DNA from: Patescibacteria group bacterium
GTDB lineage: Bacteria > Patescibacteriota > Minisyncoccia > Phycocordibacterales > Phycocordibacteraceae
Length of the DNA stretch: 64,000 nucleotides
Direction of reading: 5' to 3'
Assembly (NCBI GenBank): GCA_018971045.1
Contig: JAGWVF010000003.1
Location: 42,793-106,792, forward strand
The notes beneath the pieces were generated by a model that was not told the origin of the DNA, made no database searches, and was given only the letters and a program-made list of their open reading frames with translations. This document shows positions 22,598-60,243 of the stretch, piece by piece. Numbering within the stretch: the first letter of the stretch is position 1; every line of letters starts with the position of its first letter. The position numbers and the translations under genes were made by a program.

Positions 22598-24838
22598 ATG
22601 AATCAAACTCAAACCTACACAATCAAAGGAATGCACTGCGCCTCGTGCGCGAGCATCATAGAAAAAACTTTTAGAAAATTACCCGGCGTGAATTCTGTCG
22701 AGGTTAATTACGCGACCGAGACCGCCAAAGTTACACACGGGGTGCATGTGGATCGCGCCCGGCTCTCGAAGAGTATCGAACCTTTGGGCTACTCACTCGC
22801 ACAAACCGCCGAGGAGATGGGCATGTCTCCAGAGGAGCACGCGGGTCATCTTGGGCTTAATCAAACGAAAGAAGAGAAGCTTGCTGAGCTCAAGGCGATG
22901 CGCACCAAGGTGGTTATCTCTCTTCCGCTTGCAGTGGTGGCGGCGCTGAACATGGTGCTTGGCATCGTGCCTAACAGTTTGCTGTGGCTTATGGCCACCG
23001 TAATGCTCTTTTGGGTCGGCCAGCCGTATCTCATGGGCTTTTGGCGCTTCTTGCGCTATGGAGCGGCCAACATGGACACGCTCATCGGCATCGGAACTTC
23101 AGCCGCGTACCTCTACAGCGCAATTGTAAGCGTATTCGCGTTACAATTAAAAACGTATCTCGACGTGACCGGCACCTACTGGGACGCCGCTATCGTAGTC
23201 ATCGCGTTCATCACGCTCGGTAAGTATCTTGAAGCGCGCAGCAAACTAAAAACCGGCGACGCGATAGAAAAACTGCTCACTCTTCAGGCAAAAGTCGCGT
23301 TGGCGGTGCGCGATGGCAAAGAAGTTGAAGTGCCGATCGCAGACATCGTGCAGGGCGACATGATCGTAGTGAAGCCTGCGGGCAAAATCCCCGTCGACGG
23401 TGTTATCGCTGAAGGTTCATCGTTTGTCGATGAGTCGATGCTCACAGGCGAGCCGATACCGGTTGAAAAAAATATCGGCGACACAGTTGTTGGCGGCACG
23501 CTCAATACGACCGGCGCCTTCACCTTCCGCGCTACGAACGTGGGCGGCGATACTATGCTCGCGCACATCATCAACATGGTCGCCGAGGCGCAAGGCAGCC
23601 GGGCGCCAATTCAAGCTCTAGCCGATAAAATCAGCAGCGTCTTCGTGCCTATTGTGCTCGTGCTCGCGTTCCTGGCGCTTGGCGCGTGGCTATTGATCGG
23701 CGGGGCGTATCTCGGCTTTGCGCAGGCGCTTAGCCTCGGACTCGCTTCCTTCGTTGGGATACTGGTTATTGCGTGCCCGTGCGCACTCGGCCTCGCTACG
23801 CCGACCGCCATCATCGTAGGAGTCGGCAAGGGCGCCAAGGAAGGCATTCTCATCAAGGACGCCGCGACGTTACAGAAGCTTGCCCAGGTCGACATTGTCG
23901 TGCTCGACAAAACAGGTACGCTCACACAAGGCCGCCCCGAAGTTACGGCTCTCAATAACTACTCTAAGCTCACTGACGATCAGATACTTGCCATCGCCGC
24001 CGCGCTTGAAAGCAAATCAGAGCACCCGATAGCGCACGCGGTCGTGGGCCACGCTAACGCTCGCAAGCTAGCATTGCCGAGTGTAGACCGCTTTGAGGCG
24101 CTCAATGGCAAGGGGCTTAAGGGATTGGTAGACGGTGTTGAATACTACGCCGGCAACTTAAAGCTGTTACGCGATCTTGGCCTCGTGGCTGACGCACAAG
24201 CAGTTGCCGCAGGAACGGAGGCTGGGAATACGCCCGTCTTCCTTGCGACGAAAGATACTATTCTTGCACTCATATTGGTGGCGGATGCGCTTAAAGAAAA
24301 TGCAAAAGATGCCATTAACAAACTTCATGCTATGCGTGTCCGCGTCATGATGCTCACGGGCGACGACAAGCGCACGGCCGCCCACATAGCGCGGCTTGCG
24401 GGCATCGATGAAGTGGCAGCCGAGGTTCTTCCCGAAGACAAACTCACCACCATCAAGAAATTGCAGACTGAAGGCCGCGTGGTTGCGATGGCGGGCGACG
24501 GCGTTAACGATGCCCCCGCCTTGGCGCAAGCCGATGTCGGCATCGCCATGGCCACAGGTACCGATGTTGCTATCGAGACCGCAGGTATTGCGTTATTGTA
24601 TGGCGATCTCGGTAAACTCGTTAAAGCCGTCTCGCTCAGCAAACTCACGATGCGCGGCATCAAACAAAATCTCTTCTGGGCGTTCATCTACAACATCGTG
24701 GGTATTCCGCTCGCAGGCGGGCTCTTCTACCCTCTGCTCGGTTGGGCGATAAGCCCGGTCTTTGCCGGTGCCGCTATGGCGCTCTCGAGCGTCTCAGTTA
24801 TCAGCAACTCGCTGCGCATTAAAGCTAAAACTCTCTAA
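22598..24838 (+). CDS. copA: copper-translocating P1B-type ATPase
   Basis: N-terminal HMA domain [11 protein letters not shown] motif [14 protein letters not shown], phosphorylation site [17 protein letters not shown] hinge. Confidence 0.9.
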
Positions 24839-24843
24839 AAACT

Positions 24844-25866
24844 ATGAGCACTCAAACACTTGCCTTGCACATACAGGGCATGCACTGCAAAGCGTGCACG
24901 ATCCTTACCGAATCCGAAGCGCAGGAGCTGCCGTACATCACTCGTGCGAAGGCGGATCTCAAGCATCACACCGTTACCGTCGAAGGCGCATTGGAGTCGA
25001 AATTGCCGCAAGAAATCGCGGCAGAACTTACCGAGCGTCTGCGCTCTCACGGCTATACGGTTTCAGTCGAACGCCGGCGCCAGCCCGTGAAGTGGAGCGA
25101 CTTCAAGTTAGCTGTTCCCATCGCGCTGGCGTTTGCGGCGCTGTTTGTCCTATTGCAAAAACTCGGTCTCGTGAACTTTGTCGGGGGAGGGTCAATGACA
25201 TACGGCACCGCATTCGCTATTGGCGTAGTCGCATCGCTCAGCACTTGCATGGCAGTCGTCGGCGGCCTCGTGCTGTCGATGTCTGCCACCTTCGCCAAAG
25301 AAGGCGACCGCGTGCGCCCGCAGGTTCTGTTCCATGTTGGCCGGCTACTCTCGTTCGTGCTCTTAGGCGGCGTGATCGGAGCGATAGGCTCTGCGTTCGC
25401 GCTCAATACGACTGCGACCTTCGTACTTACGGTCATCATCGGGCTCGTGATGCTCCTTCTGGGCATCAACTTGCTCGATATCTTCCACTGGAGCAAGCGC
25501 TTGCAACCTGCCATGCCGGCTTTCATGGCTCGACATACCTACGGCATAGCGCAGGTCAATCACACGCTTACGCCGTTTCTTGTGGGCGTGGCGACCTTCT
25601 TCTTGCCATGCGGATTCACCCAGGCGATGCAGCTCTATTCGCTCGGGACCGGCAGCTTTGTCGCGGGAGCGCTCACCATGGGCTCCTTTGCGCTTGGCAC
25701 CCTGCCCGTACTTGGCCTGTTATCGTTCAGTTCGTTCAGCATCCAGCGCAGTTCGTGGGCAGGCGTATTCTTCAAGACAGCGGGACTCGTGGTCATCCTC
25801 TTCGCGCTCTACAATCTGCTTAACGCGCTCGTTATTATCGGCCTCATCCAGCCCCTCGGCCTGTAG
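24844..25866 (+). CDS. HMA-domain protein fused to polytopic membrane domain with intramembrane Cys pairs (DsbD_2/TauE-like)
   Basis: N-terminal GMHCKACT heavy-metal-associated fold; 6-8 TM helices with conserved LSTCMAV and FLPCGFTQA. Confidence 0.5.
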   Translation: MSTQTLALHIQGMHCKACTILTESEAQELPYITRAKADLKHHTVTVEGALESKLPQEIAAELTERLRSHGYTVSVERRRQPVKWSDFKLAVPIALAFAALFVLLQKLGLVNFVGGGSMTYGTAFAIGVVASLSTCMAVVGGLVLSMSATFAKEGDRVRPQVLFHVGRLLSFVLLGGVIGAIGSAFALNTTATFVLTVIIGLVMLLLGINLLDIFHWSKRLQPAMPAFMARHTYGIAQVNHTLTPFLVGVATFFLPCGFTQAMQLYSLGTGSFVAGALTMGSFALGTLPVLGLLSFSSFSIQRSSWAGVFFKTAGLVVILFALYNLLNALVIIGLIQPLGL

Positions 25867-25869
25867 CAT

Positions 25870-26262
25870 ATGAAATCAACAACTATATCGATTGTGTTCG
25901 CAGGACTGCTTATTGCTGGAGCAATCTTCTACACGGGAGCAAGTAGTACACCGGGAAGCAGTGGCACACCCGTTGCCAACAATGTCAGTGTGGTGAACGG
26001 TACGCAGATCGTGGAGATAAGCGTGCGCGGCGGTTATCATCCGCAACGCAGCCAGGCTAAAGCAGGCATTCCGACTGTGCTGCGATTTGAGACCAACGGC
26101 AGCTTTGACTGCTCGTCCTCGGTCCGTATTCCAAGCCTTGGTATCGCTCAAAGTCTGCCGTCGTCGGGCAACACAGACATAAGCGCCGGCACACCGTCTG
26201 CAGGCGTTCTGCGCGGCACCTGTGGCATGGGCATGTACAGTTTTGAGATAGGCTTCAGCTAG
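25870..26262 (+). CDS. cupredoxin-like (Cupredoxin_1) copper-binding exported protein
   Basis: Signal anchor; VRGGYHP...GTCGMGMYSFEIGF matches the V-K-GGYSP...C-x-MGMY pattern of CopA-associated cupredoxin_1 proteins. Confidence 0.65.
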   Translation: MKSTTISIVFAGLLIAGAIFYTGASSTPGSSGTPVANNVSVVNGTQIVEISVRGGYHPQRSQAKAGIPTVLRFETNGSFDCSSSVRIPSLGIAQSLPSSGNTDISAGTPSAGVLRGTCGMGMYSFEIGFS

Positions 26263-26279: not shown

Positions 26280-27158
26280 TTGATTATAAAAACTAAGCAC
26301 GTTGTCCCCGCTCTCTATATAAATGGTGATTGTCACGACTTGCTTAAGACGCGTGAATTTAAGGTTAGAGTATGCAATGATGCCCTCATGTACAAAGAAT
26401 TGACTCCCGGAGGCGTTCGGAAGATGTTTGGTGTCTCTGAGAACTATACGGTGGAGGCCCTTCTCACGTTCGGTACACATCCGAAAACGAAGGAGTATCC
26501 CTTCTTCGAGGAGGCCTTGCGCACGCAAGGTATCGAACCGATTTACGAAACGATTCCAAGTGTTTTTTTCGGCGACATACGGAGCATCATGACGCCGCAT
26601 GGGAGACTCTGGTTTGACGTCATCTATGGGAGCGCGTACGGGAGCGAAGTCGCACATATCGCTTCCCTACTCGGAGCAAAGGCTATCATTCATATCGGGA
26701 AAACCGGTGGCTTGCAGAAAGATCTCAAGACCGGGGACATTGTCGTTCCTTCTCGTGCGGACGCGGATGACAGCGCACCACGCATGTATGCTCGTCCAGA
26801 GACTGCGAAAGTGTTTCCGAGCGATGCTCAGCTCAGCGAAGAACTCACAGAAAACATTGGTGCGCCGATCGACCGCCGACCTATCATATCGATTCAAGCG
26901 ATGCTCGCTGAGACTCGCGAGGACGTCGTCGCATGGGAGAAAGAAGGCTACGCTGGTGTCGATCTTGAGTGCGCAACCATATTTGCTGTCGCGAATCATT
27001 TCAAGATCCCAGTCGCGGCGGCGGTCTACACCGCCGACAATCTTGCGAATGAATCGCTTGTGACCGATACGGGCTATGCTGAATCAAAAGAACATCGTCA
27101 GGAGGCAAAACGCCAGATCTATGCTGCAGCAGTAAAGACTCTTTTCGGGCGTATGTAA
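26280..27158 (+). CDS. nucleoside phosphorylase, PNP/UDP (PNP_UDP_1) family
   Basis: 292 aa; phosphorylase-fold blocks HIGKTGGL, DLECATIFAVANHFKIPVAAAVYTADN. Confidence 0.55.
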   Translation: MIIKTKHVVPALYINGDCHDLLKTREFKVRVCNDALMYKELTPGGVRKMFGVSENYTVEALLTFGTHPKTKEYPFFEEALRTQGIEPIYETIPSVFFGDIRSIMTPHGRLWFDVIYGSAYGSEVAHIASLLGAKAIIHIGKTGGLQKDLKTGDIVVPSRADADDSAPRMYARPETAKVFPSDAQLSEELTENIGAPIDRRPIISIQAMLAETREDVVAWEKEGYAGVDLECATIFAVANHFKIPVAAAVYTADNLANESLVTDTGYAESKEHRQEAKRQIYAAAVKTLFGRM

Positions 27159-27602: not shown

Positions 27603-28094
27603 TCAGTCCGCGCCGTCACTTGGAGCCGTGAATACGCCCTGAAGAGAGACTCGATGCGGCAAGTGCCTGTACACGCGCTGCCCAAAGTCGAAGTGGTTGA
27701 GGATGATGCCGAGCGATATGCTGAACAACACCACGACAAGCACGAGCGTGGTCGTAGCGTACGTATAGCCGCGGCGCGTGCGACGGAGGCCGCAGTATGC
27801 GACGACCGTGAAGAAGGCCGTGATACCGAGCCACACGAAGGGGATGCTCTGCGCTATATCCTGGATCGACGAACCTTGAAGCTTCGCGATGCCGTCGTTA
27901 TCAAAGAAGACGAATTCGGCAATGGCGAAGGCAATACCGCCGATGACAACTGATGCGACAGCGAGAAACCAGATCATGCCGCGGCTCACGAGAAACTTCC
28001 ATCGCGCAATGGGCACTGCGCCGCGCGCCTCAAGCTCTTTCACGAGCTCCTGTGGGAATGCGTCGCTTGTCTCCATATTAGGTGTGTTCATCAT
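27603..28094 (-). CDS. putative membrane anti-sigma factor (hypothetical)
   Basis: 163 aa; overlaps upstream sigma gene by 17 bp; cytoplasmic N-terminus then 3 TM helices; same architecture as 10030..10743. Confidence 0.4.
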   Translation of the reverse strand: MMNTPNMETSDAFPQELVKELEARGAVPIARWKFLVSRGMIWFLAVASVVIGGIAFAIAEFVFFDNDGIAKLQGSSIQDIAQSIPFVWLGITAFFTVVAYCGLRRTRRGYTYATTTLVLVVVLFSISLGIILNHFDFGQRVYRHLPHRVSLQGVFTAPSDGAD

Positions 28095-28650
28095 ACCTCT
28101 TTAGTTTTTCTTTTAGTTTCGACTTCGCCCGATTTATATAAACAGCGACCGTTCCAGACGGCAATTCCAAGATGTCCGAAATCTCATCGTAGCTCCTTTC
28201 TTCAAAGAATCGGAGGTACAGAACGTCACGGTACTTGAGATCGAGCGTTTCGAGCGCCTCGCGTACAGCTTTGGCGTTAATGGCGGTATCAACCTCGCGA
28301 GCAACGTCGAGATCGTCGGCGATCCTATCGAGCGCCTCAAGATTATCTTCGAACTTTGATGGTCGGGGACGATTCTTTTGCCTTCGGAAGTGATTGAAGG
28401 TCTCGTTGCGAGCGATGCGATACAACCAGGCGCTGAATGAAAGCGTGGAGTCGTAATCATTCAGGTGGACGTACGCCTTTATAAAAGTCTCTTGAAGAAT
28501 GTCCTTCGCTATCTCTGCATCGAGCGAACCGAGACGAACAATGTAGCGGAGAAGGCGCACATCGTATCGAACAACGAGCTGGGCGAACTCCTCGCGATTC
28601 GCGAGGGCCGCCCTTACCAGCTCAACATCCGTACGTGCGTCATCAGCCAC
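28078..28650 (-). CDS. ECF-type sigma-70 family factor (second copy)
   Basis: 190 aa; region 2 (LLRYIVRLGS...ILQETFIKAYVHL) and region 4 (RSYDEISDILELPSGTVAVYINRAKSKLKE). Confidence 0.8.
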   Translation of the reverse strand: MADDARTDVELVRAALANREEFAQLVVRYDVRLLRYIVRLGSLDAEIAKDILQETFIKAYVHLNDYDSTLSFSAWLYRIARNETFNHFRRQKNRPRPSKFEDNLEALDRIADDLDVAREVDTAINAKAVREALETLDLKYRDVLYLRFFEERSYDEISDILELPSGTVAVYINRAKSKLKEKLKRYDEHT

Positions 28651-28662: not shown

Positions 28663-29298
28663 TCACAGGGAAAAGAGCGACGCTTCTCCAAACAACTCGG
28701 TTCCCGAATCAGTAACGTGCATTCCGGCACCGTCCTTGCACGTATAGATTTCCCGTCCGTGCTTCTGTTTATACTCTGCTAGCCACGCGCGCTCGTCAGG
28801 CGTGTCAGCGAAATGCGGTTGGAATTCGAAATCAACAAAATCGAAACCGGTGAAATCAGTCATGCCGACTTCATTCTCGTCTTCAGAGGCCGCAATCTCG
28901 ATAGATGGCGTGCATATGATGCTTCCGGCACTCGCGCCGATGAGTACGCCACCGTTCGTGAGATGCTGTTCAAGAATCTTCTCGAGTCCGCGCTTGCGCG
29001 CACCGTCCATGAAAGTGAAGGTGTTCCCTCCAGAGAGATAGATGGCAGTATAGCTCGGGAGCGTTGCTAGCATCTCGTCGGTGAACGCGTCTGAAAGGTC
29101 GAAGTAGTCGACACCCAGCTCTGGACTGATCGCGGCATAATCGGCGATAGTAGATCGGTAATACGGACGATCGCCAATCTGTGGGCTCGAAGAAACATAC
29201 GCGACCTTTGTCCCCCGCTTGAGAATCTCTTGCGCGAGCGCTTCGCGCAGCTTCTCGTCGAGCGGGCTCATCATGCTGAGCAGGAAGATATTCTTCAT
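28663..29298 (-). CDS. peptidase S51 family (dipeptidase E / cyanophycinase-like, Asp-specific)
   Basis: YLSGGNTFTFM and GASAGSIIC (catalytic Ser) blocks; probable start MKNIFLL at 29298 (ORF track extends to 29373). Confidence 0.65.
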   Translation of the reverse strand: MKNIFLLSMMSPLDEKLREALAQEILKRGTKVAYVSSSPQIGDRPYYRSTIADYAAISPELGVDYFDLSDAFTDEMLATLPSYTAIYLSGGNTFTFMDGARKRGLEKILEQHLTNGGVLIGASAGSIICTPSIEIAASEDENEVGMTDFTGFDFVDFEFQPHFADTPDERAWLAEYKQKHGREIYTCKDGAGMHVTDSGTELFGEASLFSL

Positions 29299-29305
29299 GA
29301 TCTTC

Positions 29306-30160
29306 TTACTTACGAACAAGCTCCGTATCAAACCATTGCTCCTGAAAATGAATAGCCGCCATAATCTCACCATCCGTCATGGCCACGCCGCTTGGTACGA
29401 CGATGAGTTTGTCGTCGTCATTATCTTTCCTATGTGCAATAGCTATGCAAATACCGGACGCTTTTGCGAGCGGTTCCTGCACACCGAGATAATAAGCATC
29501 GAGCTCTTCGCCATCGGGTGCCTTGGTGTCAGGCACATAGCCGTAGTTCGCCTCATAGACGAAACCGTGCTTCGGATGTTTTGATCCAAGCGGTCGATCC
29601 ATCACCACTTCGACCTCCTTGCCGAGATAGTTATGGGCGAGTGCAAACGATCCTGACGGCTGTAGTTCAGCCTTCAATGCGAGAGCGCGCCGCATGAGGT
29701 GCTCGCCTATCTCTCCCCAGTCGAAATACTGTTTGATATCTGCCGGATTGATGAGCCGCATCTCTGTAACACCTTCGCCATCGCTAGAATCGGCATCCTC
29801 AACGAAAGGTCCGACGGGTTCGACGATGCAGACTGCGCGAACCTGCACCGAGAGGCGGTGCGGTTCTGTTACTTCTTGGTAGCCGATAATGCGCTGTTTG
29901 AGCACGCGCATGTTCGTCTCTTCGAGCACTTCCCGTACAATCGCTTCTTCTGCCGTCTCTCCCGGCTCTACCCCGCCGCCCGGCGGCGTCCAGTATCCCT
30001 TCCCTTCTGAATACACGATGACGAGCTGATCATCGACAAAGCAGAACGCGTGCACGCCGTGCGCCATCCGGTCACCAAGCTCTTCAAACGAGTCAAGATC
30101 CCGGTACACCACAGGCACCGTACCCAGCTTTCGCGTCTGCATCGTTGATCTGATTTCCAT
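29306..30160 (-). CDS. NUDIX hydrolase fused to family-I inorganic pyrophosphatase-like domain
   Basis: Nudix box GGGVEPGETAEEAIVREVLEETN in N-half; C-half has DRPLGSKHP...EANYGYVPDTKAPDGEELDAYYLG and GICIAIAHRKDNDDDKLIVV paralleling PPase DRP...NYGFIPxT..DGDPLDVLV / VIGVLxMxDEGExDxKIIAV. Confidence 0.6.
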   Translation of the reverse strand: MEIRSTMQTRKLGTVPVVYRDLDSFEELGDRMAHGVHAFCFVDDQLVIVYSEGKGYWTPPGGGVEPGETAEEAIVREVLEETNMRVLKQRIIGYQEVTEPHRLSVQVRAVCIVEPVGPFVEDADSSDGEGVTEMRLINPADIKQYFDWGEIGEHLMRRALALKAELQPSGSFALAHNYLGKEVEVVMDRPLGSKHPKHGFVYEANYGYVPDTKAPDGEELDAYYLGVQEPLAKASGICIAIAHRKDNDDDKLIVVPSGVAMTDGEIMAAIHFQEQWFDTELVRK

Positions 30161-30163
30161 ATC

Positions 30164-30748
30164 CTATTCTTTCGCCTTCAAGTATCCCTTGAATCCTTCC
30201 TCGTCTTTCACGCCGTGTCGCATGACAGCCTTGTAGAAATCGGTACTGATGACGCCGTCGCGATACCCCTTCCCGTCTCTCCACTTCTCCTTAAGACGGA
30301 GGATGACGAGACGTTGCTCGTCGGTACTCGCGTCGAGCTCGGAAGCGTCATAATCTCCGATCTCTCCTCGCTTCCCGAACCACATATCAACTTTCCATTC
30401 GCCAGAGGGCTGTACCGTGCGCACGCCGACGTAGTACGCATGAGGGAAATTGATACGGTCTTTCCGGAAATCTCTCCGCAACTCGCGATAATTATTGAAA
30501 TGCACCATCTGAATGATTGGCATTTTCGCGAGCACCGGGAGAAGATCTACGACTGCTTCAAGACTTGATTCTTTCATCCAAGCATGAATATCAATATCGG
30601 GCATAACCATAAGCCCGCTCTTCACGCTTCCGACAATTTCCGGTTCAGAGATTCTCCCGATAATCGAGAGCAGATCGAGGTCTTTCAAAATCCGCTGCGC
30701 CTCCTCTTGCAAAGATTGTGCCCTGACGATCAATTGTCCATCGGTCAT
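30164..30748 (-). CDS. nucleotidyltransferase-fold protein (pol-beta-like NTase superfamily)
   Basis: GSVKSGLMVMPDIDIH = GS-x9-D-x-D NTase signature near N-terminus; 194 aa. Confidence 0.45.
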   Translation of the reverse strand: MTDGQLIVRAQSLQEEAQRILKDLDLLSIIGRISEPEIVGSVKSGLMVMPDIDIHAWMKESSLEAVVDLLPVLAKMPIIQMVHFNNYRELRRDFRKDRINFPHAYYVGVRTVQPSGEWKVDMWFGKRGEIGDYDASELDASTDEQRLVILRLKEKWRDGKGYRDGVISTDFYKAVMRHGVKDEEGFKGYLKAKE

Positions 30749-31227
30749 TCAAGTATTCTACTCAAAATAAGCCTGGTCGTCTCTTCTGGTGTTTGCTTCG
30801 TAGTATCTATAGTCTCTCCAAAACTCGGGTTATGGATGCCTATATTGTAGTGATGCTTGATCCTTTCTTTTTCCCAATCATCGAGTTCCCGTGCACCTCT
30901 GTTAGTCAGAGCTTTCTCAAGCTGCGGCGCGAACGTGAACACTCGAATATCGACATTCAAATCTCTCAGATTTTCCATTAGGAAATCATAGTTCTTTTGT
31001 GAGAGCGGATATGGAACAATGACATTAAGGTCTCTTTTTACGAAATTCGTAATGATCGATATCGCATTCTCAAGATTGAGCGGGATGCTCTGCTCGAGCG
31101 GCATCCAACCAACCATCTCACGTAACGCATCAATTTCGACCACGGCGGTATGTGGCAATTCTTTGAGGAGCAACTTTGCAACCGTGCTCTTCCCGGCGTT
31201 GATTGAGCCATTGAGGAAAATGATCAT
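30745..31227 (-). CDS. P-loop NTPase/kinase (AAA_33/zeta-toxin-like small kinase)
   Basis: Walker A GSINAGKST at residues 7-15; 160 aa; 4-bp overlaps with both neighbours. Confidence 0.5.
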   Translation of the reverse strand: MIIFLNGSINAGKSTVAKLLLKELPHTAVVEIDALREMVGWMPLEQSIPLNLENAISIITNFVKRDLNVIVPYPLSQKNYDFLMENLRDLNVDIRVFTFAPQLEKALTNRGARELDDWEKERIKHHYNIGIHNPSFGETIDTTKQTPEETTRLILSRILE

Positions 31228-32279
31228 GGCGAGAAAGTAGCATATATTTTCCGTGCTTTTCCGTCGATGCGAATACGTCCGCCGTACGGTAATGATATCT
31301 GCGGACTGGTATGGCCTATGTCGAGATTCTGTATCATGGGGATTGTCGGGTTGTATGCGCGGACAGCCTTGAGGATGGTCTCACGCTGTTCTGCACGATA
31401 GGCGGCCTGCCAAGCTTCGTCGTGCTCGTTGCCGAACTCCCACGCTTTGGGTCTTCCCACAAGTACACCCTTAACGCGCGCAAGAATACCTCGTTCCCCA
31501 AGCGCTCGGTATACGCGAAAGACATAGTCTGCTGGCGGCATCTCTTCCGACGTCTCGGTAAAAAGGATTATGTTCTCGAACTCATCAAGCGACGGGGTAG
31601 TCGTACCGTGTCGGAGCATCTCATCGATGGATTCGAGACATCCTCCCCAACTTATACCGTCAGCATCCTTTCCTCCGTCCCAGTACCACCCCTCGTTCGG
31701 CAGAAATGTCTCGAACTTCTCAAGATTCGCGGGATCGTTCCAATCGAGTCCCATATCCGAGAACGTCGGGCTCGATTCGAGCTCGTATTCTCCTGATTCA
31801 AAGAGGGCGATATTCAAGTATTTCAGCGTGAAGTCGTCAATCTTCCCCTCCATCGCGAATTGAGTGAAGAGCGCGCCACCGTAGTACGACGCGATTCCCT
31901 GTTGCCAGAGGAAGTTCTCGAGATGCGTGTTGTCGCTGTAGCCGAACACCGGCTTCGGATTGTGCGCAAATGGTTCAGGCGGAAGATTCTTGATGTAGGT
32001 CACCTGGTCGTCACCGCCAAGCGAGGTGATGATCCCTTTGATCGTCGAATCCTCAAACGCGGCGACTAGGTCGGCCGCGCGCTCCTTGCCAGACGCGCCG
32101 AGCTTGGCTGTTGTTGGAAATGCAACTGGCTCGAGGCCAAAATCTTCTCGCAGACGCTTAAGCCCGAGTTCATACACGTGAGGGAATCTGCCGGGCGCAG
32201 CGAACGAGGGCGAAAGGATGGCAACCCGATCACCTCGTTTCAGCTTGGGCGGTGTAACCAGCTTTTTCATGCAATTCAT
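31224..32279 (-). CDS. S66-family LD-carboxypeptidase (MccF-like)
   Basis: 351 aa; RGDRVAILSPS N-terminal block, nucleophile motif FGYSDNTHL, two-domain size typical of S66. Confidence 0.7.
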   Translation of the reverse strand: MNCMKKLVTPPKLKRGDRVAILSPSFAAPGRFPHVYELGLKRLREDFGLEPVAFPTTAKLGASGKERAADLVAAFEDSTIKGIITSLGGDDQVTYIKNLPPEPFAHNPKPVFGYSDNTHLENFLWQQGIASYYGGALFTQFAMEGKIDDFTLKYLNIALFESGEYELESSPTFSDMGLDWNDPANLEKFETFLPNEGWYWDGGKDADGISWGGCLESIDEMLRHGTTTPSLDEFENIILFTETSEEMPPADYVFRVYRALGERGILARVKGVLVGRPKAWEFGNEHDEAWQAAYRAEQRETILKAVRAYNPTIPMIQNLDIGHTSPQISLPYGGRIRIDGKARKIYATFSP

Positions 32280-32386
32280 TATACTTCGTATCGAAGATTT
32301 CGTACCATACTGCCCCTAGGGCCGACCAGTACCGGTTCTTGGTGTCACAATCGCACTGCGCTGGTAGCATGAGATCTCGCAACCTA

Positions 32387-32977
32387 CTACCGACGGGCGA
32401 GAAATGGGTTTGGCTCATCAAAAGTGAGATGTATGACAGTGTCTTTGGAAAGATTGTCAGGATGAATACCGTAAACCATCTCATATATCTCACCTGCTCC
32501 ACAGAATTTCGCACTTTCCCAATCAAAACCTAGTTTCTCGGCGGCGGATCTCACCTGTTCTTCGTCAGGTCCTTCGATTTCAACATATGGCTTTAAATGC
32601 GGCCACGTATCGATGTCGACCTCCACGCCATCGAGTTCCCATCTCTCTCGAAGAGTCTCCGAATAGTTCGTCATCCGCGCTCCAAGCGCTTTCATAAATT
32701 CAGCACCGCGTTCCATATCTGAGATTGTAAATTCAACTTCTTTTTGTTGGTCTATGGTCGCCTCGGGCGGGATCTTCTTATACGCCATAGTCACCTTATC
32801 GCCTTCGTCCCGTACTCGCACCCATTCCCAAAAATCTCGACCGAGACTTTGCAAATCGAAATTCACGCGGCGCTGCTTGTATTCGTTGCGTAAAAGATTC
32901 GCGCCAAGCGCTTTAAGCTTATTTCTGAACGCGTCCTTATCGACATCTAGAAATGTCGCCTCGTATTCCGTCTGCAT
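32387..32977 (-). CDS. CYTH-domain protein (class IV adenylyl cyclase / triphosphate tunnel metalloenzyme-like)
   Basis: 196 aa; N-terminal EYEATFLDVD (ExE tunnel motif), alternating charged beta-strands typical of CYTH. Confidence 0.5.
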   Translation of the reverse strand: MQTEYEATFLDVDKDAFRNKLKALGANLLRNEYKQRRVNFDLQSLGRDFWEWVRVRDEGDKVTMAYKKIPPEATIDQQKEVEFTISDMERGAEFMKALGARMTNYSETLRERWELDGVEVDIDTWPHLKPYVEIEGPDEEQVRSAAEKLGFDWESAKFCGAGEIYEMVYGIHPDNLSKDTVIHLTFDEPNPFLARR

Positions 32978-33077
32978 GGTGCAATAGTATCATTTCATAC
33001 TGTTAGGGATGGGTCGGCCTTCTAGTATTTGCGGCCTTTGGCCGCTTTCGTAGCATAAATCGGTATAGAATAGGATT

Positions 33078-33989
33078 ATGAACATCTTCCGAAGTCAGCT
33101 CGTCACATATCTGCGCACACTCCTTCCTGCTATGGGTGAAGCGAACGTGTCGTTCCCACCGCAAGGCATGAGTAGCCATGTGTTTTTCTTAACCTCCGGC
33201 GATACGGCGTACGCGGTGAAATACGGTCCTGATGCAACCAAAGACGTGCCCACCCTCACGCTTATTCACGAGTGCGGTACCCGGGTGCCGGTGCCCGAGG
33301 TGGTAACCGAGTTCGTTTTCGAAAGCGTACCCGTTTTGGTTATGACATGCATTCAATTTCCGCTACTTGATACGGTGGCAGTGACCGAGCTTCCGCTCTA
33401 TATTCCGAGCATGGTATCCGTGATGCGCAAGCTCCACACGATTACGAATCCGGTGCCACGCGTACTCTCCGCGGCAAAAGATCTTCCCTCGTGGCAAGAG
33501 TATCTGCTCGCGCAATTCGATGGCCGGACGATCGATTGGACTGAAGTACTCGACCGCCCAACGCTCGATCGCGCGCTCGTCGCCGAAGCGCTTGCACGGC
33601 ATCACGCCACACTCTCCACCTTCGAGCTCAAGCTGCCCGAGTATGCCCTGCTCCACACAGACTTCAATCAGCGCAACTTGTTTGTCAATTCAACAACAAG
33701 ATCTATCAGCGGTGTCATCGACTGGGAAGATGCCGTGTTCGGCGATCCGATATATGATTTTTCCCGCATACGCATGCTCCTTTGGCACTTCGATCTTCCT
33801 GATTCGGTCGTGCGGACATACGACGAGCTCATGCGCTATACCGATGCCGAGCACAGGCGCGAGCGTCTCTACTGGACCGGACGAGTCATCCAATATCTCG
33901 CGTGGTATTCCGAGGAGGATACGCCGTTTAATACCGCACGCATTGCATTGCATCAAAAATACTTGCACACATTGCTGAATAACCCATAA
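33078..33989 (+). CDS. aminoglycoside/choline-kinase-type phosphotransferase (APH family)
   Basis: Brenner motif HTDFNQRN and VIDWEDAVFGDPIYD (DxE...GDP) block. Confidence 0.65.
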   Translation: MNIFRSQLVTYLRTLLPAMGEANVSFPPQGMSSHVFFLTSGDTAYAVKYGPDATKDVPTLTLIHECGTRVPVPEVVTEFVFESVPVLVMTCIQFPLLDTVAVTELPLYIPSMVSVMRKLHTITNPVPRVLSAAKDLPSWQEYLLAQFDGRTIDWTEVLDRPTLDRALVAEALARHHATLSTFELKLPEYALLHTDFNQRNLFVNSTTRSISGVIDWEDAVFGDPIYDFSRIRMLLWHFDLPDSVVRTYDELMRYTDAEHRRERLYWTGRVIQYLAWYSEEDTPFNTARIALHQKYLHTLLNNP

Positions 33990-34011: not shown

Positions 34012-34371
34012 TCAGCCAACTTTCGCAATCCGTATCCCCACGACGCCGTACTTCTGCTCGTCTTCCTTTGAATAGAACTGTCGTATCTGATTGAGCAGAA
34101 ATTCTCGGCTTTCACCACCGAAAAGAGAAGGATCGAGGTCTGCAAAAAGCTCTTTGAACGATTGATGCCGAAGAAGTCCTACGACCTTCGCGCGTACCTT
34201 ATTCTCGGGATGCTTGCTCTCGCTGAATTCAATCTCGTCGCCGAGCGCGATCTGCTGGCGCTTTTCGTCGTAGAGGCGCGACTCAACGACCTTCGTGCCA
34301 GAAGCAATCTGGTTGAACGGCTCTGTCGATAATTTCATCTCGTGTTGCATACGTTTTTTATCAGACTCCAT
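34012..34371 (-). CDS. ASCH-domain protein
   Basis: 119 aa; EPFNQIASGTKVVESR...GDEIEF pattern of ASCH/PUA-like fold. Confidence 0.5.
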   Translation of the reverse strand: MESDKKRMQHEMKLSTEPFNQIASGTKVVESRLYDEKRQQIALGDEIEFSESKHPENKVRAKVVGLLRHQSFKELFADLDPSLFGGESREFLLNQIRQFYSKEDEQKYGVVGIRIAKVG

Positions 34372-34700
34372 GGTGGTTGCAGGGGGCCGACATATACTTT
34401 AGGACCCCCGAATTGATCTGCAGTAATATCAATAACGGTTTTGTCGGCGACTAAGAACGTATGATCATACTCTCCATACTTCCCTTGGGTAACTTCTCCT
34501 CCCAATCTCTTTTGGAGATACAAAGATGCAAGACCGCAGTTCCCATCTGGGAAGATATCTTTTGCTTTGCTTACAAAACGCGCAGTATCACCAACGTCTG
34601 TATAATTTCGATATAGCTCAATGAGCAAGTCTTGGTTGATCGATCCAGCCTCGAACTGTCTTCGAGCCTCAAACGCCGCCTTTTTATTGGAAACGCTCAT
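34335..34700 (-). CDS. hypothetical protein
   Basis: 121-aa ORF, codon usage consistent with neighbours, 37-bp overlap with ASCH gene; no recognisable motif. Confidence 0.3.
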   Translation of the reverse strand: MSVSNKKAAFEARRQFEAGSINQDLLIELYRNYTDVGDTARFVSKAKDIFPDGNCGLASLYLQKRLGGEVTQGKYGEYDHTFLVADKTVIDITADQFGGPKVYVGPLQPPWSLIKNVCNTR

Positions 34701-35451: not shown

Positions 35452-35596
35452 TAATTAGGAACCTTGATCCCTTACGCTCGCCAATCGTTAAACAGATATT
35501 TGAAAATATCGGCAACGACAGGTGGAGTGGCCGCCAGGTATATGGGTGGCCTGGAGGCGCAACATACGCCGCGACTTTTGCGCACGTGATGCCGAG

Positions 35597-35661
35597 CGGT
35601 ACCGTACTCGTCCCGACGGGGGACGGTATTGGTTCCTGGCGTCACAACCGTGTTGCGGGGG
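35597..35661 (+). repeat. intergenic hairpin repeat, copy R1 (family of three)
   Basis: cggtaccgtactcgtcccgacgggggacggtattggttcctggcgtcacaaccgtgttgcggggg; 63/65 identical to R2; imperfect palindrome GGTACCGTAC...GTCCC/GGGAC...GGTA; lies between convergent genes. Confidence 0.7.
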
Positions 35662-35696
35662 TCATAGACGAATCGGACTTTCTACGACCTAGATGC

Positions 35697-36257
35697 TCAA
35701 GTTCGATTCCTGTCCCCATTTTCGCGTATCATTTCTTCATATTCATGAATAGATGATAGTCCCATCTCTGCTCGCCGCGTGTCGATCTCTCGCGGATCTT
35801 CAAAGGGAAAGAATGATATGGATCCATCCTCGTTTATCGCGCTGTATTGCGTCCCGTACCGTTGCGGCCTCCCTTCCCGCACCAGCAATTTGTCGGTGAT
35901 AAATGCCGCATGAGACGTGTCAACGTCCTCTGTCTCAGAGGCAAGGATGGCATTTGCAACTTGATCCATAAATCCAGGATCGTCGGAATGCAAGACGAGC
36001 GCAATGAATGCCCGGTAGGCATCCTCACCAACAAGTCGTATCTTTGGAAATTCGATTTCAAATATCCTGCGCGCCTCTTCTGTGCGTGCATGAATCGCGT
36101 TATTTATATCTTCAAGACTTAGCGTCCCTGCTTTATATTGTTTTAAGTCCTCCTGATCCTCCGCGAGCAACTGGAGAAGATGCTCAGATAATCCAAAGTC
36201 TCTCATGTTTCGATTCTCGTGCTCGTTATTTTGATATTGAGCTTTGGTACTCAGCAA
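35697..36257 (-). CDS. hypothetical protein
   Basis: 186 aa, acidic; overlaps upstream NTase gene by 32 bp; no family recognised. Confidence 0.35.
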   Translation of the reverse strand: MLSTKAQYQNNEHENRNMRDFGLSEHLLQLLAEDQEDLKQYKAGTLSLEDINNAIHARTEEARRIFEIEFPKIRLVGEDAYRAFIALVLHSDDPGFMDQVANAILASETEDVDTSHAAFITDKLLVREGRPQRYGTQYSAINEDGSISFFPFEDPREIDTRRAEMGLSSIHEYEEMIRENGDRNRT

Positions 36258-36756: not shown

Positions 36757-37803
36757 ATGGAAGATCGCCTCTCAAAACGCATCAAGCTCACCCCGAGCAT
36801 TCTGAAGAAAATCGCCTTCATCGACGAGTTCAAAGGCCGCTGGCGCGGCACGGCTGAGATGAGCCCGAAGATACTCGACCGTCTGCGCGCCTCGGTCATC
36901 ATCACCTCGACCGGATCCTCAACCCGCATCGAAGGTTCGGCTCTAAGCGACGAAGAAGTCGCGCGGCTCCTACGAGGGTTAAAATCGAAGCCGCCGGTCG
37001 GTCGTGACGAAGAAGAGGTTGCCGGGTATGCCGATCTTCTTGGTCGGATATTCGATCACTATTCTGACCTTTCACTATCCGAGAGCCGCATTCTCCAGTT
37101 CCATGAGATTCTCCTCCACTACGCCAAGAAGGACGCGCTCCACAAGGGCGCGTACAAGACGACCGACAATGTCGTCGTAATGCGCGGCGAGAAGGGCGAG
37201 GAGATTGTCCTCTTCCGTCCCACTCCACCGTACCTCGTGAAGAAGGAGATGGATGACTCCATTGCATGGTTTGATGACGCGCACGACCAGCATCCGCTTC
37301 TCGCCATCGCCAACTTCATCTTCGAGTTTCTCGTGATCCACCCTTTCCACGACGGGAATGGGCGACTCTCGCGTGCGCTCACGAATCTGTTCCTCTTGCG
37401 CGCCGGATACGGCTATACTCCCTCTGTTTCGCTCGACGAGATTATCGAAGAGCGCAAGACTGATTATTATCTCGCCCTCCGCCAGACACAGAAACATCAC
37501 AAGACAGACAACGAGGACATTACGCCCTGGACTGAGTTCTTGCTCGATGCGCTCCTTGAGCAGTCGATGCGCGCCGAGAAGCTCCTCGGAGAGAAACATC
37601 CGGAGATGCTTCTCTCGTCCAAGCAACTCGCTGTTTTTGAGCTCTTCGCAGGTGGCGAGGAGCTCTCGGTGCGCGAGATATACGATCGCCTCGATGGCGC
37701 TATCGCCGTGCCGACCATCAAGAAGACTCTTCTGCGTCTTATGAGCCATCTGCTTATCATGCGTCTCGGCCAAGGTCGCGCAACACGGTATCGTAAGATA
37801 TAA
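36757..37803 (+). CDS. Fic/DOC family protein (AMPylator-type)
   Basis: Canonical Fic motif HPFHDGNGRLSRAL; 348 aa with C-terminal winged-helix-like segment. Confidence 0.85.
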   Translation: MEDRLSKRIKLTPSILKKIAFIDEFKGRWRGTAEMSPKILDRLRASVIITSTGSSTRIEGSALSDEEVARLLRGLKSKPPVGRDEEEVAGYADLLGRIFDHYSDLSLSESRILQFHEILLHYAKKDALHKGAYKTTDNVVVMRGEKGEEIVLFRPTPPYLVKKEMDDSIAWFDDAHDQHPLLAIANFIFEFLVIHPFHDGNGRLSRALTNLFLLRAGYGYTPSVSLDEIIEERKTDYYLALRQTQKHHKTDNEDITPWTEFLLDALLEQSMRAEKLLGEKHPEMLLSSKQLAVFELFAGGEELSVREIYDRLDGAIAVPTIKKTLLRLMSHLLIMRLGQGRATRYRKI

Positions 37804-38330: not shown

Positions 38331-38347
38331 CGGAGCCAGATGCCTGT

Positions 38348-38463
38348 CGGTACCGTACTCGTCCCGACGAGGGACGGTATTGGTTCCTAGCGTCACAACC
38401 GTGTTGCCCGAGACGATACCGTACCAGACCATACAAGGTATATAAGGGTTCCTTGGTGACACT
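38348..38463 (+). repeat. intergenic hairpin repeat, copy R2 plus a degenerate tandem second unit
   Basis: 38348..38408 near-identical to R1; 38412..38463 (gataccgtaccagacc...gggttccttggtgacactcc) is a diverged second copy of the same unit. Confidence 0.65.
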
Positions 38464-39957: not shown

Positions 39958-40026
39958 GTGATTATGGGGACCGGTACAGTACCCGTTTTGACGGGCGTCG
40001 GTACTGGTTCCTGGCGTCACAACCGT
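39958..40026 (+). repeat. intergenic hairpin repeat, copy R3 (diverged), overlapping the 3' end of tRNA(CAT)
   Basis: ggggaccggtacagtacccgttttgacgggcgtcggtactggttcctggcgtcacaaccgtgttgcggggg; 3' 30 nt identical to R1; hairpin arm shows compensatory changes relative to R1/R2. Confidence 0.65.
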
Positions 40027-40088
40027 GTTGCGGGGGCCGGAATCGAACCGGCGTCTGGAGGTTATGAGCCTCCCGAGGTACCTCTCCT
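40018..40088 (-). tRNA. tRNA-Met(CAU), initiator-like (fMet) features
   Basis: Manual cloverleaf: acceptor AGCGGGG/CCCCGCA with A1xA72 mismatch, U8 A9, D-stem GAGG/CCTC with A11:U24, anticodon stem GGAGG/CCTCC, loop CUCAUAA, 4-nt variable, T-arm GCCGG-TTCGATT-CCGGC, discriminator A; CCA not encoded. Confidence 0.65.
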
Positions 40089-41065: not shown

Positions 41066-41088
41066 CGTATCCAGTATAATCGATAGAT

Positions 41089-57355: not shown

Positions 57356-57376
57356 ATTTGGTATTCTGCAGTTCAC

Positions 57377-57465: not shown

Positions 57466-57508
57466 GGATCGGCGACTTTGAACCTTAGATAATCGTAGTT
57501 ATATTAAT

Positions 57509-60072: not shown

Positions 60073-60243
60073 AAGAATATTATAGAAAATAAATAGAAAG
60101 TATACAAATTTAGTTATTCACAACGGATGAACTTTGTAATACACTCTTTAATTGCTGTATATTTTTATCAAAAATCGCGAAGTTAAGCCGTATTTTCGGT
60201 TCAAACTTCCGGAAATCGTCACCACACTTGATCCTGCACTCGC

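Follow-up and report, generated by a model that had tools for sequence, protein, structure and literature searches.

How far do six small, co-directional genes in a Patescibacteria MAG form a functional unit, and on what would their products act? The genes lie on the minus strand of the window, the 64,000-nucleotide stretch of DNA that we analysed (NCBI proteins MBU6214553-MBU6214558; Table 1), and an original prediction had read them as an operon joined by 4-bp overlaps or tiny gaps. All six ORFs exist, Pfam reproduces the domains that had been named, and intact domains with catalytic motifs are found in all six products. For the NUDIX-PPase gene the most likely start is 30160 (284 aa, MEIRST...), on which homologues and the NCBI model agree, and for the S51 gene it is 29298 (211 aa). 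The tight spacing holds from S66 through S51: the kinase gene overlaps both the S66 and the NTase genes by 4 bp, 3 nt separate NTase from NUDIX and 7 nt NUDIX from S51, and the ECF sigma gene follows after a further 12 nt. It does not hold for CYTH, which lies 116 nt from S66. Since this spacer contains a weak copy of the island repeat and a TATAAT box that precedes the S66 ATG by ~8 nt, CYTH is probably a transcription unit of its own, upstream of the rest. S66-kinase-NTase-NUDIX/PPase-S51 is the probable remaining unit, and its transcription possibly reads on into the ECF sigma genes. Past S51 the ECF sigma, TM and secreted repeat proteins are encoded in the same direction, until a strong terminator-like hairpin-T tract at 27188-27166 closes the run. 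The prediction had placed an ECF sigma/anti-sigma pair and a secreted repeat protein immediately downstream of the block; in L104, L108, L112 and L113 these genes are not beside the gene set.

Table 1. Features of the six-gene block and its surroundings (window positions).
Feature	Position	Strand	Evidence
Secreted repeat protein, 108 aa	27201-27527	-	
TM protein, putative anti-sigma, 17-nt overlap with ECF sigma	27603-28094	-	
ECF sigma factor	28078-28650	-	Pfam Sigma70_r2/r4
S51 peptidase, 211 aa	28663-29298	-	Pfam PF03575 E 8e-27
NUDIX + mini-PPase fusion, 284 aa	29306-30160	-	PF00293 E 9e-13, PF00719 E 1.5e-6
NTase194, pol-beta-fold nucleotidyltransferase, 194 aa, uncurated family	30164-30748	-	
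CPT-like P-loop kinase, 160 aa	30745-31227	-	PF07931 (CPT) E 3e-7
S66 serine peptidase, MccF-like branch, 348 aa	31224-32270	-	PF02016 E 2e-22, PF17676 E 6e-20
Weak fourth repeat copy, hairpin-containing, CYTH-S66 spacer	32304-32365		nhmmer E 0.009
CYTH/triphosphate-tunnel protein, 196 aa	32387-32977	-	Pfam PF01928 E 2e-11
APH-family phosphotransferase, divergent from CYTH	33078-33989	+	Pfam PF01636 E 7e-23
ASCH	34012-34338	-	Pfam
YunG	34335-34700	-	Pfam
88-nt repeat copy	35589-35676		
DUF6624	35697-36257	-	Pfam
Small NTase, 137 aa	36226-36639	-	Pfam
88-nt repeat copy	38340-38427		
88-nt repeat copy at tRNA-Met, island anchor	39964-40051		
tRNA-Met(CAT)	40027-40098	-	ARAGORN + Rfam

The only contigs with the six genes in exactly this order are identical ones from the same Patescibacteria organism, so the block is not a fixed operon; with the order shuffled in relatives and CYTH set apart, the six-gene operon as a unit had to be abandoned. 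Its members nevertheless do not look like ordinary housekeeping orthologues, none of the six reaching a housekeeping equivalog cutoff in NCBIfam, and although the whole block is not conserved, parts of it recur and fusions link its families. The constant pair is NTase-NUDIX with its 3-nt gap, present at no fewer than seven loci (L005, L104, L108-L110, L014/L029/L030, L114 and the window), while the 4-bp kinase-NTase overlap is kept in L024 and L114. NUDIX is the top Pfam family within ±2 positions of the NTase (10 of 108 proteins, ~34 non-redundant CPR loci), whereas it accounts for none of the 61 proteins around non-CPR relatives (Fisher p 0.0097). S66, S51 and NUDIX stay together in three different orders: S66, an S51-PPase-C39 fusion and NUDIX in L112; S66, ASCH, a small NTase-S51 fusion and NUDIX in L113; and S66, kinase, NTase, NUDIX-PPase and S51 in the window. 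These three loci are not fully independent, because they come from fairly close relatives (S66 78% identical). In L010, L016, L052 and L057, S66 is likewise a direct or close neighbour of the NTase.

Fusions join the same families in other combinations. NUDIX and PPase are combined as NUDIX-PPase, in the reverse order and in a distant NUDIX+PPase protein; the remaining fusions are NUDIX-CYTH, S51-PPase, S51-PPase-C39, ASCH-mini-PPase (P0343), small NTase-S51 and ASCH-NTase194 (P0073, P0078, P0079 and P0081). The partners of S51 in P0332, P0236, P0234 and P0235 are mini-PPase, C39 or the small NTase, homologues of which are N-terminal to S51 in P0234 and P0235 (71% identity). A YunG gene comes after NTase-NUDIX in L104 and L110, where it is a called gene, and in L108 and L109, where it is an ORF match; DUF6624 adjoins ASCH and S51 in L104, and L006, L104 and L112 have GNAT genes next to the set. 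The block represents one lineage's version of a pool of ~10 small enzyme genes, which in a Patescibacteria clade remain close together while their order changes and fusions are frequent. The pool holds NTase194, the BsRppH-like NUDIX, mini-PPase, the CPT-like kinase, CYTH, the MccF-like S66, the putative Ser-His-Asp S51, ASCH, YunG, DUF6624 and the small NTase, joined by GNAT and C39 in relatives.

The assignment of the S66 enzyme to the MccF type was borne out. Its PDB matches are led by B. anthracis Ba3275 (3e-47), followed by Lmo1638, BA_5613, BaMccF and EcMccF (1.7e-15), whereas the LdcA-type structures 6uuk/5z01 rank lower and align over the C-terminal part only; the catalytic residues are found as the Ser of GYSD, the Glu of ETSE and the His of GHT. 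NCBI names the product LD-carboxypeptidase, but an identity as LdcA was rejected (46.7 against an equivalog cutoff of 378), and judged by these matches the protein belongs to the MccF-like branch. For S51, PepE was rejected in the same way (46.4 against 156). Its triad appears to be Ser-His-Asp (S115/H154/D181, numbered on the 203-aa form starting at 29274), and the spacing from His to the third residue is 27, close to the 28 of MccG and unlike the 35 of PepE, where that residue is Glu. The closest PDB entries to S51 are Lmo0363 and DR_1070, which reportedly lack Asp-X dipeptidase activity, a point against a microcin C-type substrate. The earlier suggestion of two peptidases directed at Asp-nucleotides is strengthened by work on microcin C, in which MccF (S66) and MccG (S51, of the Ser-His-Asp clade) both cleave the Asp-nucleotide carboxamide bond of the processed compound and five of seven stand-alone MccG homologues tested protected cells (PMC9239234).

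NTase194 has the GS...DxD...D signature and two-lobe fold of pol-beta nucleotidyltransferases, as in CD-NTases, TUTases/PAP, OAS, GrpB and antibiotic NTases, with TUT4/7, PAP, OAS1 and CD-NTases as best fold matches over ~165 of 194 residues. Unlike those enzymes it is only 194 aa long and forms a separate family of ~1356 clusters at 50% identity; neither Pfam nor NCBIfam has a model for it, and the PDB offers no sequence relative. The NUDIX half of the fusion, with the catalytic glutamates of its NUDIX box present, finds its best structural and NCBIfam match in B. subtilis RppH (YtkD), an RNA 5' pyrophosphohydrolase/NTP pyrophosphohydrolase; its score, however, is far under the equivalog cutoff (36.5 against 154), and unlike BsRppH it adjoins, in this clade, a small pol-beta NTase and is fused to a partial, mini family-I pyrophosphatase-like domain (~110 aa). 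The kinase has the Walker A motif GSINAGKST and exceeds the PF07931 cutoff (30.7 bits against 22), with weak matches to Gar/GrdA, (d)CMP kinase and AAA_33 and a PDB match to BH3686 only. In CYTH, EYEAT replaces the N-terminal ExExK motif, an ExExT variant that also occurs in the CYTH next to the NTase in L006; the protein stays below the cyaB cutoff (TIGR00318, 44.6 against 57.95) and weakly matches 1yem and the Saci_0718 TTM.

What, then, might the set do? Our preferred reading, held tentatively and built on analogy, is that it may provide immunity to, or salvage of, nucleotide conjugates, above all microcin C-type aminoacyl- or peptidyl-nucleotides, which it would neutralise and/or recycle inside the cell. 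S66 and S51 would release the nucleotide from its amino acid, the activity known for MccF and MccG; the kinase and NTase(s) would modify the compound or its remnants; and NUDIX-PPase and CYTH would hydrolyse phospho-nucleotide products and pyrophosphate. The known microcin C immunity enzymes are MccF (S66), MccG (S51), MccE2 (GNAT) and MccH (HIT), and most MccG homologues, according to the same authors, stand alone, outside any mcc biosynthetic cluster (PMC9239234; bioRxiv 10.1101/2020.03.04.977132), as do the genes of this locus. Shared with this repertoire are the MccF-like S66, an S51 predicted to be of the Ser-His-Asp type and, in relatives, GNAT, the enzyme class of MccE. In contrast to it, S66 and S51 are clustered with each other and clustered, even fused, with NUDIX, mini-PPase, CYTH, kinase and NTases, partners that are outside the known mcc immunity repertoire; the block has no HIT enzyme, MccC pump or producer genes, and the host is of a Patescibacteria lineage. 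The set would thus be an immunity or salvage system and not a biosynthetic operon: no mcc-type producer genes lie nearby, and the window contains neither an MccB/ThiF-type enzyme nor a precursor peptide. Given the recurrence and the MccF/MccG evidence on one side and the shuffled order and missing synthesis genes on the other, detoxification or turnover is the plausible part of the original interpretation, while synthesis and a fixed operon are not. Against neutralisation stand the constant core, which is NTase-NUDIX and not the peptidases, and the resemblance of the NUDIX domain to an RNA 5' pyrophosphohydrolase.

The clustering could also be passive, since the hypervariable hotspot collects RM systems and mobile-element genes as well. 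The set sits in a variable region whose anchor is the tRNA-Met that lies downstream of ligA-gatCA, where unrelated stand-alone house-cleaning or xenobiotic-modifying enzymes might pile up without a shared substrate or pathway, short gaps and fusions being by-products of compaction. The changing gene order fits this explanation, as do the occupants of the same site in relatives (type I RM, PrimPol, DNA methylase, MFS, ATP-grasp, PAP2 and other genes) and the 88-nt repeat that originated from the 3' flank of tRNA-Met and that, in the window as in L005, L024, L025 and L104, divides the island into modules; the weak fourth copy was found with an nhmmer profile built from the three strong ones. Behind hyp197 in L005 and L104 lies the same tRNA-Met. 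GC3 is heterogeneous and lower in the island genes (0.37-0.69, most <0.63) than in the flanking core of hyp197, gatC, gatA and ligA (0.65-0.74). About two thirds of the NTase loci have none of the partners nearby, the NUDIX loci L111, L115 and L118 lack other set members nearby, and distant NTase relatives occur in grab-bag neighbourhoods among SAM methyltransferases, GrpB, isochorismatase and beta-lactamase. The island resembles tRNA-linked hotspots and integron-like cassette arrays in its co-directional short genes (NUDIX, GNAT-like and other small enzymes), its hypervariable site beside a tRNA and the hairpin-containing repeats between modules; unlike such arrays, it has no integrase or attI that we could see in the window, only four repeat copies for ~20 genes, and several gene pairs that are conserved and fused. 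Several observations speak against mere co-location: at least three fusions joined NUDIX to mini-PPase, with either domain first and with different NUDIX lineages; the 3-nt and 4-bp junctions persist across lineages 73-82% identical; only the CPR clade shows the NUDIX enrichment; and S66, S51 and NUDIX remain together through three rearrangements. The set proteins are, moreover, as conserved as housekeeping proteins (69-82% identity to the counterparts in L104, L112 and L113, against 61-82% for housekeeping proteins). We regard passive accumulation as somewhat unlikely, if a serious competitor.

RNA-end metabolism, which we consider improbable, is a main rival in view of the TUTase/CD-NTase-like fold of the NTase and of the NUDIX domain, whose closest resemblance is to BsRppH. 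Here NTase194, RppH-like NUDIX, mini-PPase, CYTH, the P-loop kinase and ASCH would remodel RNA ends: CYTH and NUDIX would convert 5'-ppp to 5'-p, the kinase phosphorylate 5'-OH, the PPase clear PPi, the NTase tail 3' ends and ASCH provide targeting, with the peptidases as unrelated passengers or acting on aminoacylated 3' ends. The best fold matches of the NTase are indeed template-independent RNA/oligonucleotide NTases, ASCH (PUA-like, predicted to bind RNA) is fused to it, CYTH/TTM proteins include RNA triphosphatases and a NUDIX-CYTH fusion exists, and the weak AAA_33 match of the kinase points the same way. The family matches, however, are all far below equivalog cutoffs, as for YtkD, an enzyme that hydrolyses free NTPs too; the S51-PPase and small NTase-S51 fusions and the recurrent S66 are left unexplained, and the set has no RNase or other RNA-decay gene.

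Cell-wall scavenging is more doubtful still. In this scheme murein stem peptides would be the substrates of S66, working as an LD-carboxypeptidase, and of the peptidases S51/C39, while NUDIX-PPase, kinase and NTase would handle host-derived UDP-MurNAc-peptide or sugar-phosphate parts. The family and NCBI name of S66 agree with it, MurL, Mur ligase, FtsW and MurG are neighbours of NTase and S66 in L009/L010, set members in L104, L113 and L111 have PG_binding_1 and Amidase_2 genes nearby, and the kinase gene adjoining the block has the APH fold, as do the anomeric MurNAc kinases of the AmgK family. But the ranking of S66 places it among MccF-like proteins, with true LdcA matched only weakly, pol-beta NTases are not known to produce NDP-sugars, and the window has no MurNAc-specific enzyme. 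Least probable is a CBASS-like signal defence or peptidyl-nucleotide biosynthesis, in which a signal or antibiotic produced by the NTase would be tuned or matured by the hydrolases: PADLOC matched none of five of the six proteins and the NUDIX only weakly, the window contains no effector or Cap2/Cap3 besides lacking MccB/ThiF and a precursor peptide, there were no phage matches, and the NTase is half as large as CD-NTases. The APH neighbour of the block recurs as well, a homologue preceding PPase-kinase-NTase in L024 and another lying near the NTase in L025.

The six minus-strand ORFs that the original prediction placed at 28663-32977 are present, and Pfam and NCBIfam searches reproduced their domain calls. 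They encode a CYTH protein, an S66 peptidase, a P-loop kinase, a pol-beta-fold nucleotidyltransferase (henceforth NTase194), a NUDIX-pyrophosphatase fusion and an S51 peptidase. With the corrected starts, the CYTH and S66 genes are 116 nt apart and the junctions that follow measure -4, -4, 3, 7 and 12 nt. Past the S51 gene come an ECF sigma factor gene, one for a membrane protein that overlaps it and one for a secreted repeat protein, and the co-directional run stops at a strong hairpin-T tract (27188-27166). Operon borders were drawn from the gaps, one TATAAT box and a repeat element; a consensus scan for promoters and terminators revealed no enrichment of promoters. TATAAT/GATACT-like boxes lie ~6-12 nt before several ATGs (S66, CYTH, APH and the 197-residue flanking protein hyp197; for example 32271-32300, 32978-33007 and 41066-41085), so near that they suggest leaderless or very short-leader transcripts.

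In NCBI the block is MBU6214553-58 of a "Patescibacteria group bacterium" MAG, named as a CYTH domain protein, an LD-carboxypeptidase, two hypothetical proteins, a NUDIX domain protein and a type-1 glutamine-amidotransferase-like protein. In line with the original prediction, a check for housekeeping orthologs against NCBIfam found none of the six proteins reaching the score of a curated equivalog (bits against cutoff: LdcA 46.7/378; MutT 28/98; inorganic diphosphatase 20/200; CyaB 44.6/57.95 for the CYTH protein; PepE 46.4/156 and cyanophycinase 19.9/126.6 for the S51 peptidase; YtkD/RppH 36.5/154 for the NUDIX protein).

Coordinates of the block genes, the 88-nt repeat and other features (L-numbers denote loci of relatives)
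Feature	Position	Strand	Remark
CYTH	32387-32977	-	Pfam/NCBIfam
Two-domain S66 peptidase	31224-32270	-	PF02016 + PF17676
P-loop kinase, 160 aa	30745-31227	-	sole above-threshold family CPT (chloramphenicol-phosphotransferase-like)
NTase194, 194 aa	30164-30748	-	without any family match
NUDIX fused to partial family I pyrophosphatase match, 284 aa	start 30160 (MEIRST...)	-	start moved by homologue alignments
S51 peptidase, 211 aa	start 29298 (MKNIFLLSMMSPL...)	-	start moved by homologue alignments
88-nt repeat, three copies	39964-40051, 38340-38427, 35589-35676
88-nt repeat, fourth copy, weak	32304-32365		CYTH-S66 spacer; nhmmer E 0.009
88-nt repeat, L005	6253-6348
88-nt repeat, L104	2376-2458, 5345-5421
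88-nt repeat, L025	7664-7744, 9667-9748
88-nt repeat, L024	2462-2525
CYTH of L006	7597-8196		NTase-adjacent; EYEAT variant
Small NTase-like protein, 137 aa	36226-36639	-	weak NTP_transf_5 match
Fic-domain protein	36757-37803	+	PADLOC SoFic model, E 1e-39
ATP-grasp gene and 51-aa ORF, L104	5768-6968		MvdD/RimK-like
PaaK/ThiF/nitroreductase triad, L112	12727-16442
PaaK/ThiF/nitroreductase triad, L115	11750-15580
Copper/heavy-metal cluster	22598-26262	+	just past block
PNP/UDP-family phosphorylase	26280-27158		after copper/heavy-metal cluster

As a fixed six-gene operon, the block did not hold up. Searches with an NTase194 profile gave 12 loci in a set that holds a single genome for each species and 80 loci in JGI metagenomes, and none of the 12 or of the 80 has the six-gene order. 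Outside the window that order is seen only in L001-L004, identical Logan contigs from the same organism. An orthologous NUDIX gene (55-83% identical) follows the NTase by 3 nt in L005, L104, L108-L110, L014/L029/L030 and L114. The order is mini-PPase, NTase, NUDIX in L005 (mini-PPase being a ~110-residue truncated pyrophosphatase-like domain), APH, mini-PPase, kinase, NTase in L024, kinase, NTase and a NUDIX-CYTH fusion in L114, and NUDIX, NTase, CYTH, GNAT in L006, whose NTase is 53% identical to that of the window. The 4-bp overlap of kinase and NTase genes is retained in L024 and L114, and L010, L016, L052 and L057 have an S66 gene beside the NTase or close to it. Two loci without this NTase carry S66, an S51-PPase-C39 fusion and NUDIX (L112) or S66, ASCH, a fusion of the small NTase-like protein to S51, and NUDIX (L113), with S66 78% and S51 73-78% identical to the window proteins. 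Among neighbours up to two genes away from the NTase at Patescibacteria (CPR) loci, NUDIX is the top Pfam family (10 of 108 proteins, ~34 non-redundant loci), ahead of GNAT (5) and then S66, CYTH, YunG and HAD; by contrast, none of 61 neighbours of non-CPR relatives is a NUDIX protein (Fisher p 0.0097), their place being taken by SAM methyltransferases, GrpB, isochorismatase and similar proteins.

The same families are joined within single proteins (P-numbers denote homologous proteins). NUDIX precedes the PPase domain in P0238 and P0265 (49-53% identical to the window protein) and follows it in P0272, while P0354 joins a distant NUDIX to PPase and P0259 joins NUDIX to CYTH. Further fusions are S51-PPase (P0332), S51-PPase-C39 (P0236), ASCH-PPase (P0343) and ASCH/DUF3850 with NTase194 (P0073, P0078, P0079 and P0081). 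In P0234 and P0235, from other Patescibacteria, a homologue of the window's small NTase-like protein (~71% identical) forms the N-terminus of S51; the S51 fusions surfaced through a chimeric query of CYTH, kinase and S51 (3 matches). Repeated proximity through rearrangements, tight junctions that were kept and the many fusions together argue that the families are functionally connected, with the independently arisen NUDIX/PPase fusions in both orders weighing most.

The S66 peptidase has both domains of its fold and intact Ser/Glu/His motifs (GYSD, ETSE and GHT), which line up with conserved motifs in Ba3275, its best PDB match (3e-47), followed by Lmo1638, BA_5613, BaMccF (5e-21) and EcMccF (1.7e-15). 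The LdcA-type entries 6uuk (1.5e-13) and 5z01 (2e-6) rank below these and align in the C-terminal half only. Judged by sequence, the protein is thus nearer to MccF-like proteins than to the murein LD-carboxypeptidase LdcA; it also has a long inter-domain insert containing Trp residues. The window holds no ThiF/MccB homologue, which places the S66 peptidase outside any mcc biosynthetic cluster, but MccF-type activity is compatible with this absence since stand-alone homologues are known. The S51 domain (PF03575, E 8e-27) has the motifs GASAGS (S115), QPHF (H154) and KDGAG (D181), numbered on the 203-aa form, from which we infer a Ser115-His154-Asp181 triad; where Asp stands here, PepE has Glu. 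His and Asp are 27 residues apart (28 in MccG), while His and Glu are 35 apart in PepE, and the Asp-type triad would be common to this protein and the MccG clade (clade V, which includes B. subtilis PepE and N. vaccinii MccG) of Yagmurov et al. 2022, whereas PepE is of the Glu type. Among PDB structures, Lmo0363 and DR_1070 come nearest to it.

MccF cuts the Asp-nucleotide carboxamide bond in intact and processed microcin C, the S51 peptidase MccG cuts the same bond in processed forms, and five of seven tested stand-alone MccG homologues protected E. coli (PMC9239234). The remaining known microcin C immunity classes are GNAT (MccE2) and HIT (MccH) (PMC9239234; bioRxiv 10.1101/2020.03.04.977132). 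Our literature search found no paper connecting these families with NUDIX, PPase, CYTH or Patescibacteria. Because the removal of aspartate from an aspartyl-nucleotide is the one documented activity common to both peptidase families, nucleotide conjugates are the most economical shared substrate class, and we tentatively favour the reading that the block is an immunity or salvage set for such conjugates. The S66 and S51 peptidases would deacylate the conjugate, NUDIX-PPase and CYTH would degrade the phospho-nucleotide remnants and PPi, and the kinase and NTase would, in the least supported step, modify the compound or its products. Rather doubtful is a dedicated, fusion-linked pathway kept by the Patescibacteria clade, in which MccF-like S66, MccG-like S51, BsRppH-like NUDIX, mini-PPase, CYTH, kinase, ASCH and NTase194 would dismantle aminoacyl- or peptidyl-nucleotides, be they antibiotics or modified host nucleotides. 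In such a pathway new activities would fall to NTase194 and the mini-PPase, with nucleoside phosphoramidates as one example of a substrate, and the NUDIX-CYTH fusion could strip triphosphate groups in two steps.

The original interpretation, synthesis, turnover or detoxification of a peptidyl- or aminoacyl-nucleotide, thus stands in part: the observation behind it is confirmed, and synthesis is unsupported because an MccB-like enzyme and a precursor are absent. A triad near NUDIX/S66 in L112 and L115 that looked promising as mcc-like producer genes was set aside as a different known family that is absent from the window. It consists of a PaaK-like adenylate-forming ligase (~500 aa), an Rv1355c-type ThiF-family protein and an Acg-type FMN nitroreductase-like protein, and is conserved in related genomes a few kb from NUDIX/S66.

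The strongest rival is passive build-up at a site where accessory enzymes accumulate, which we regard as possible, if on the unlikely side, beside the fusions and retained junctions. The genes ligA-gatC-gatA, hyp197 and tRNA-Met(CAT) precede the variable region in the window, L005 and L104; L108 shares this run of genes, with the tRNA-Met missing at that position. The region holds NTase-NUDIX alone in L108, a type I RM system upstream of NTase-NUDIX in L109, PrimPol and a DNA methylase in L110, and in L104 an array of PPase, PAP2, MFS, ATP-grasp, DUF6624, ASCH, DUF3977 and S51, then two unknown genes, NTase, NUDIX, YunG and GNAT. The L104 ATP-grasp gene, which shares its tRNA-Met island with DUF6624, ASCH and S51, is followed at once by the 51-aa ORF, and the two may be a graspetide-type pair.

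The 88-nt repeat consists of the 3' flank of tRNA-Met(CAT) with the tRNA's last ~10-25 bases. Minus-strand gene modules have it at their 3' ends, and related genomes conserve it at this hotspot: in L005, L024, L025 and L104 its copies lie beside the tRNA or between modules. Every copy can fold into a hairpin that keeps its outer stem while the inner one varies from copy to copy, and no integrase was seen. The repeats probably mark module boundaries from serial insertion at the tRNA, and may represent att-type scars from successive integrations, a terminator or a recombination element. With such boundaries, CYTH would belong to an inserted module together with APH, ASCH, YunG and a histidine phosphatase, and the stretch from S66 to S51 would form the older flank, given that in L005 NTase-NUDIX lies directly after the tRNA. 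GC3 is 0.37-0.63 for most island genes (up to 0.69 for Fic) versus 0.65-0.74 for hyp197, gatC, gatA and ligA. Between relatives, however, the proteins of the set (the pool of about ten small enzyme families shuffled and fused among them) are 69-82% identical and housekeeping proteins 61-82%, and at this level of sequence conservation the set is not a recent foreign import. If its members do not act jointly, the locus is a clear example of accessory-enzyme shuffling at a CPR tRNA-Met hotspot.

RNA-end processing by an NTase-NUDIX-CYTH-kinase core agrees with the ASCH fusions and with the fold matches, yet offers no account of the fusions that involve the peptidases, and we consider it unlikely. 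NTase194 belongs to an uncurated nucleotidyltransferase family: G40-S41, D51-x-D53 and D121 are invariant across 42 homologues, and the AlphaFold model is confident (pLDDT 91). Antibiotic NTases are absent from the best 60 matches. It has no sequence match among PDB chains or Pfam models, and an exhaustive profile search at E<=1e-3 yielded 1356 50%-identity clusters, of which a few distant members match NTP_transf_2 or Polbeta weakly. Near relatives form 84 clusters at 50-100% identity, and those that carry a name come from Patescibacteria, Parcubacteria, Kaiserbacteria and Roizmanbacteria. A search for a phage link gave no match, and homologues on Streptomyces and Clostridium plasmids are isolated "hypothetical proteins".

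The PPase half of the NUDIX fusion covers only positions 31-95 of the 153 of PF00719. The mini-PPase is strongly conserved regardless of fusion partner and retains YxxNYGY, DGEELD and DDDK, which align with the metal-binding core of family I pyrophosphatases; residues are mapped on what we take to be the numbering of the E. coli enzyme. The stretch linking strand 1 to the NYGY motif is deleted and W-F stands where the C-terminal Tyr-Lys would be, so that the module is not a complete family I pyrophosphatase in the sense of a full-length domain with all metal- and PPi-binding residues. In the CYTH protein, EYEAT replaces the N-terminal ExExK (Lys to Thr), as it does in the CYTH protein of L006.

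Scavenging of murein peptides is improbable, with an S66 peptidase that ranks closer to MccF than to LdcA. A CBASS-like or biosynthetic role is very improbable: PADLOC gave no NTase match, the window holds no effector, and the fold likeness of NTase194 to CD-NTases is no more than any pol-beta NTase shows. A known defence system was likewise rejected, as PADLOC yielded a weak NUDIX match, SoFic for the distant Fic gene, and nothing else. The Fic gene is followed by a 158-aa ORF without a family, and both are in the island module of DUF6624 and the small NTase-like protein.

The locus combines known kinds of genes, stand-alone Mcc-type immunity peptidases, within a previously undescribed fusion-linked enzyme set. 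Its main value lies in testable links to the uncurated NTase family and the new mini-PPase module: it offers a functional context for the 194-residue pol-beta NTases (>1000 50%-identity clusters, no Pfam model), for the ~110-residue module fused to NUDIX, S51 and ASCH, and for the ExExT CYTH variant. Should the set act jointly, it would give the first sign that Patescibacteria, ultra-small and host-dependent as they are, devote conserved genes to peptide-nucleotide immunity or recycling, and the microcin C immunity repertoire (MccE, MccF, MccG and MccH) would gain nucleotide-degrading partners.

Elsewhere in the window, the copper/heavy-metal cluster encodes a P-type ATPase with an HMA domain, an HMA-DsbD_2 membrane protein and a cupredoxin-like protein. 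At ~57000-60100, beside tRNA-Ser(GCT) (57377-57465), GC falls sharply to 0.37-0.43; this stretch, which holds a 233-aa ORF (+) and a 621-aa ORF (-) with a LexA-like N-terminus in appearance, may be a second tRNA-linked insertion.
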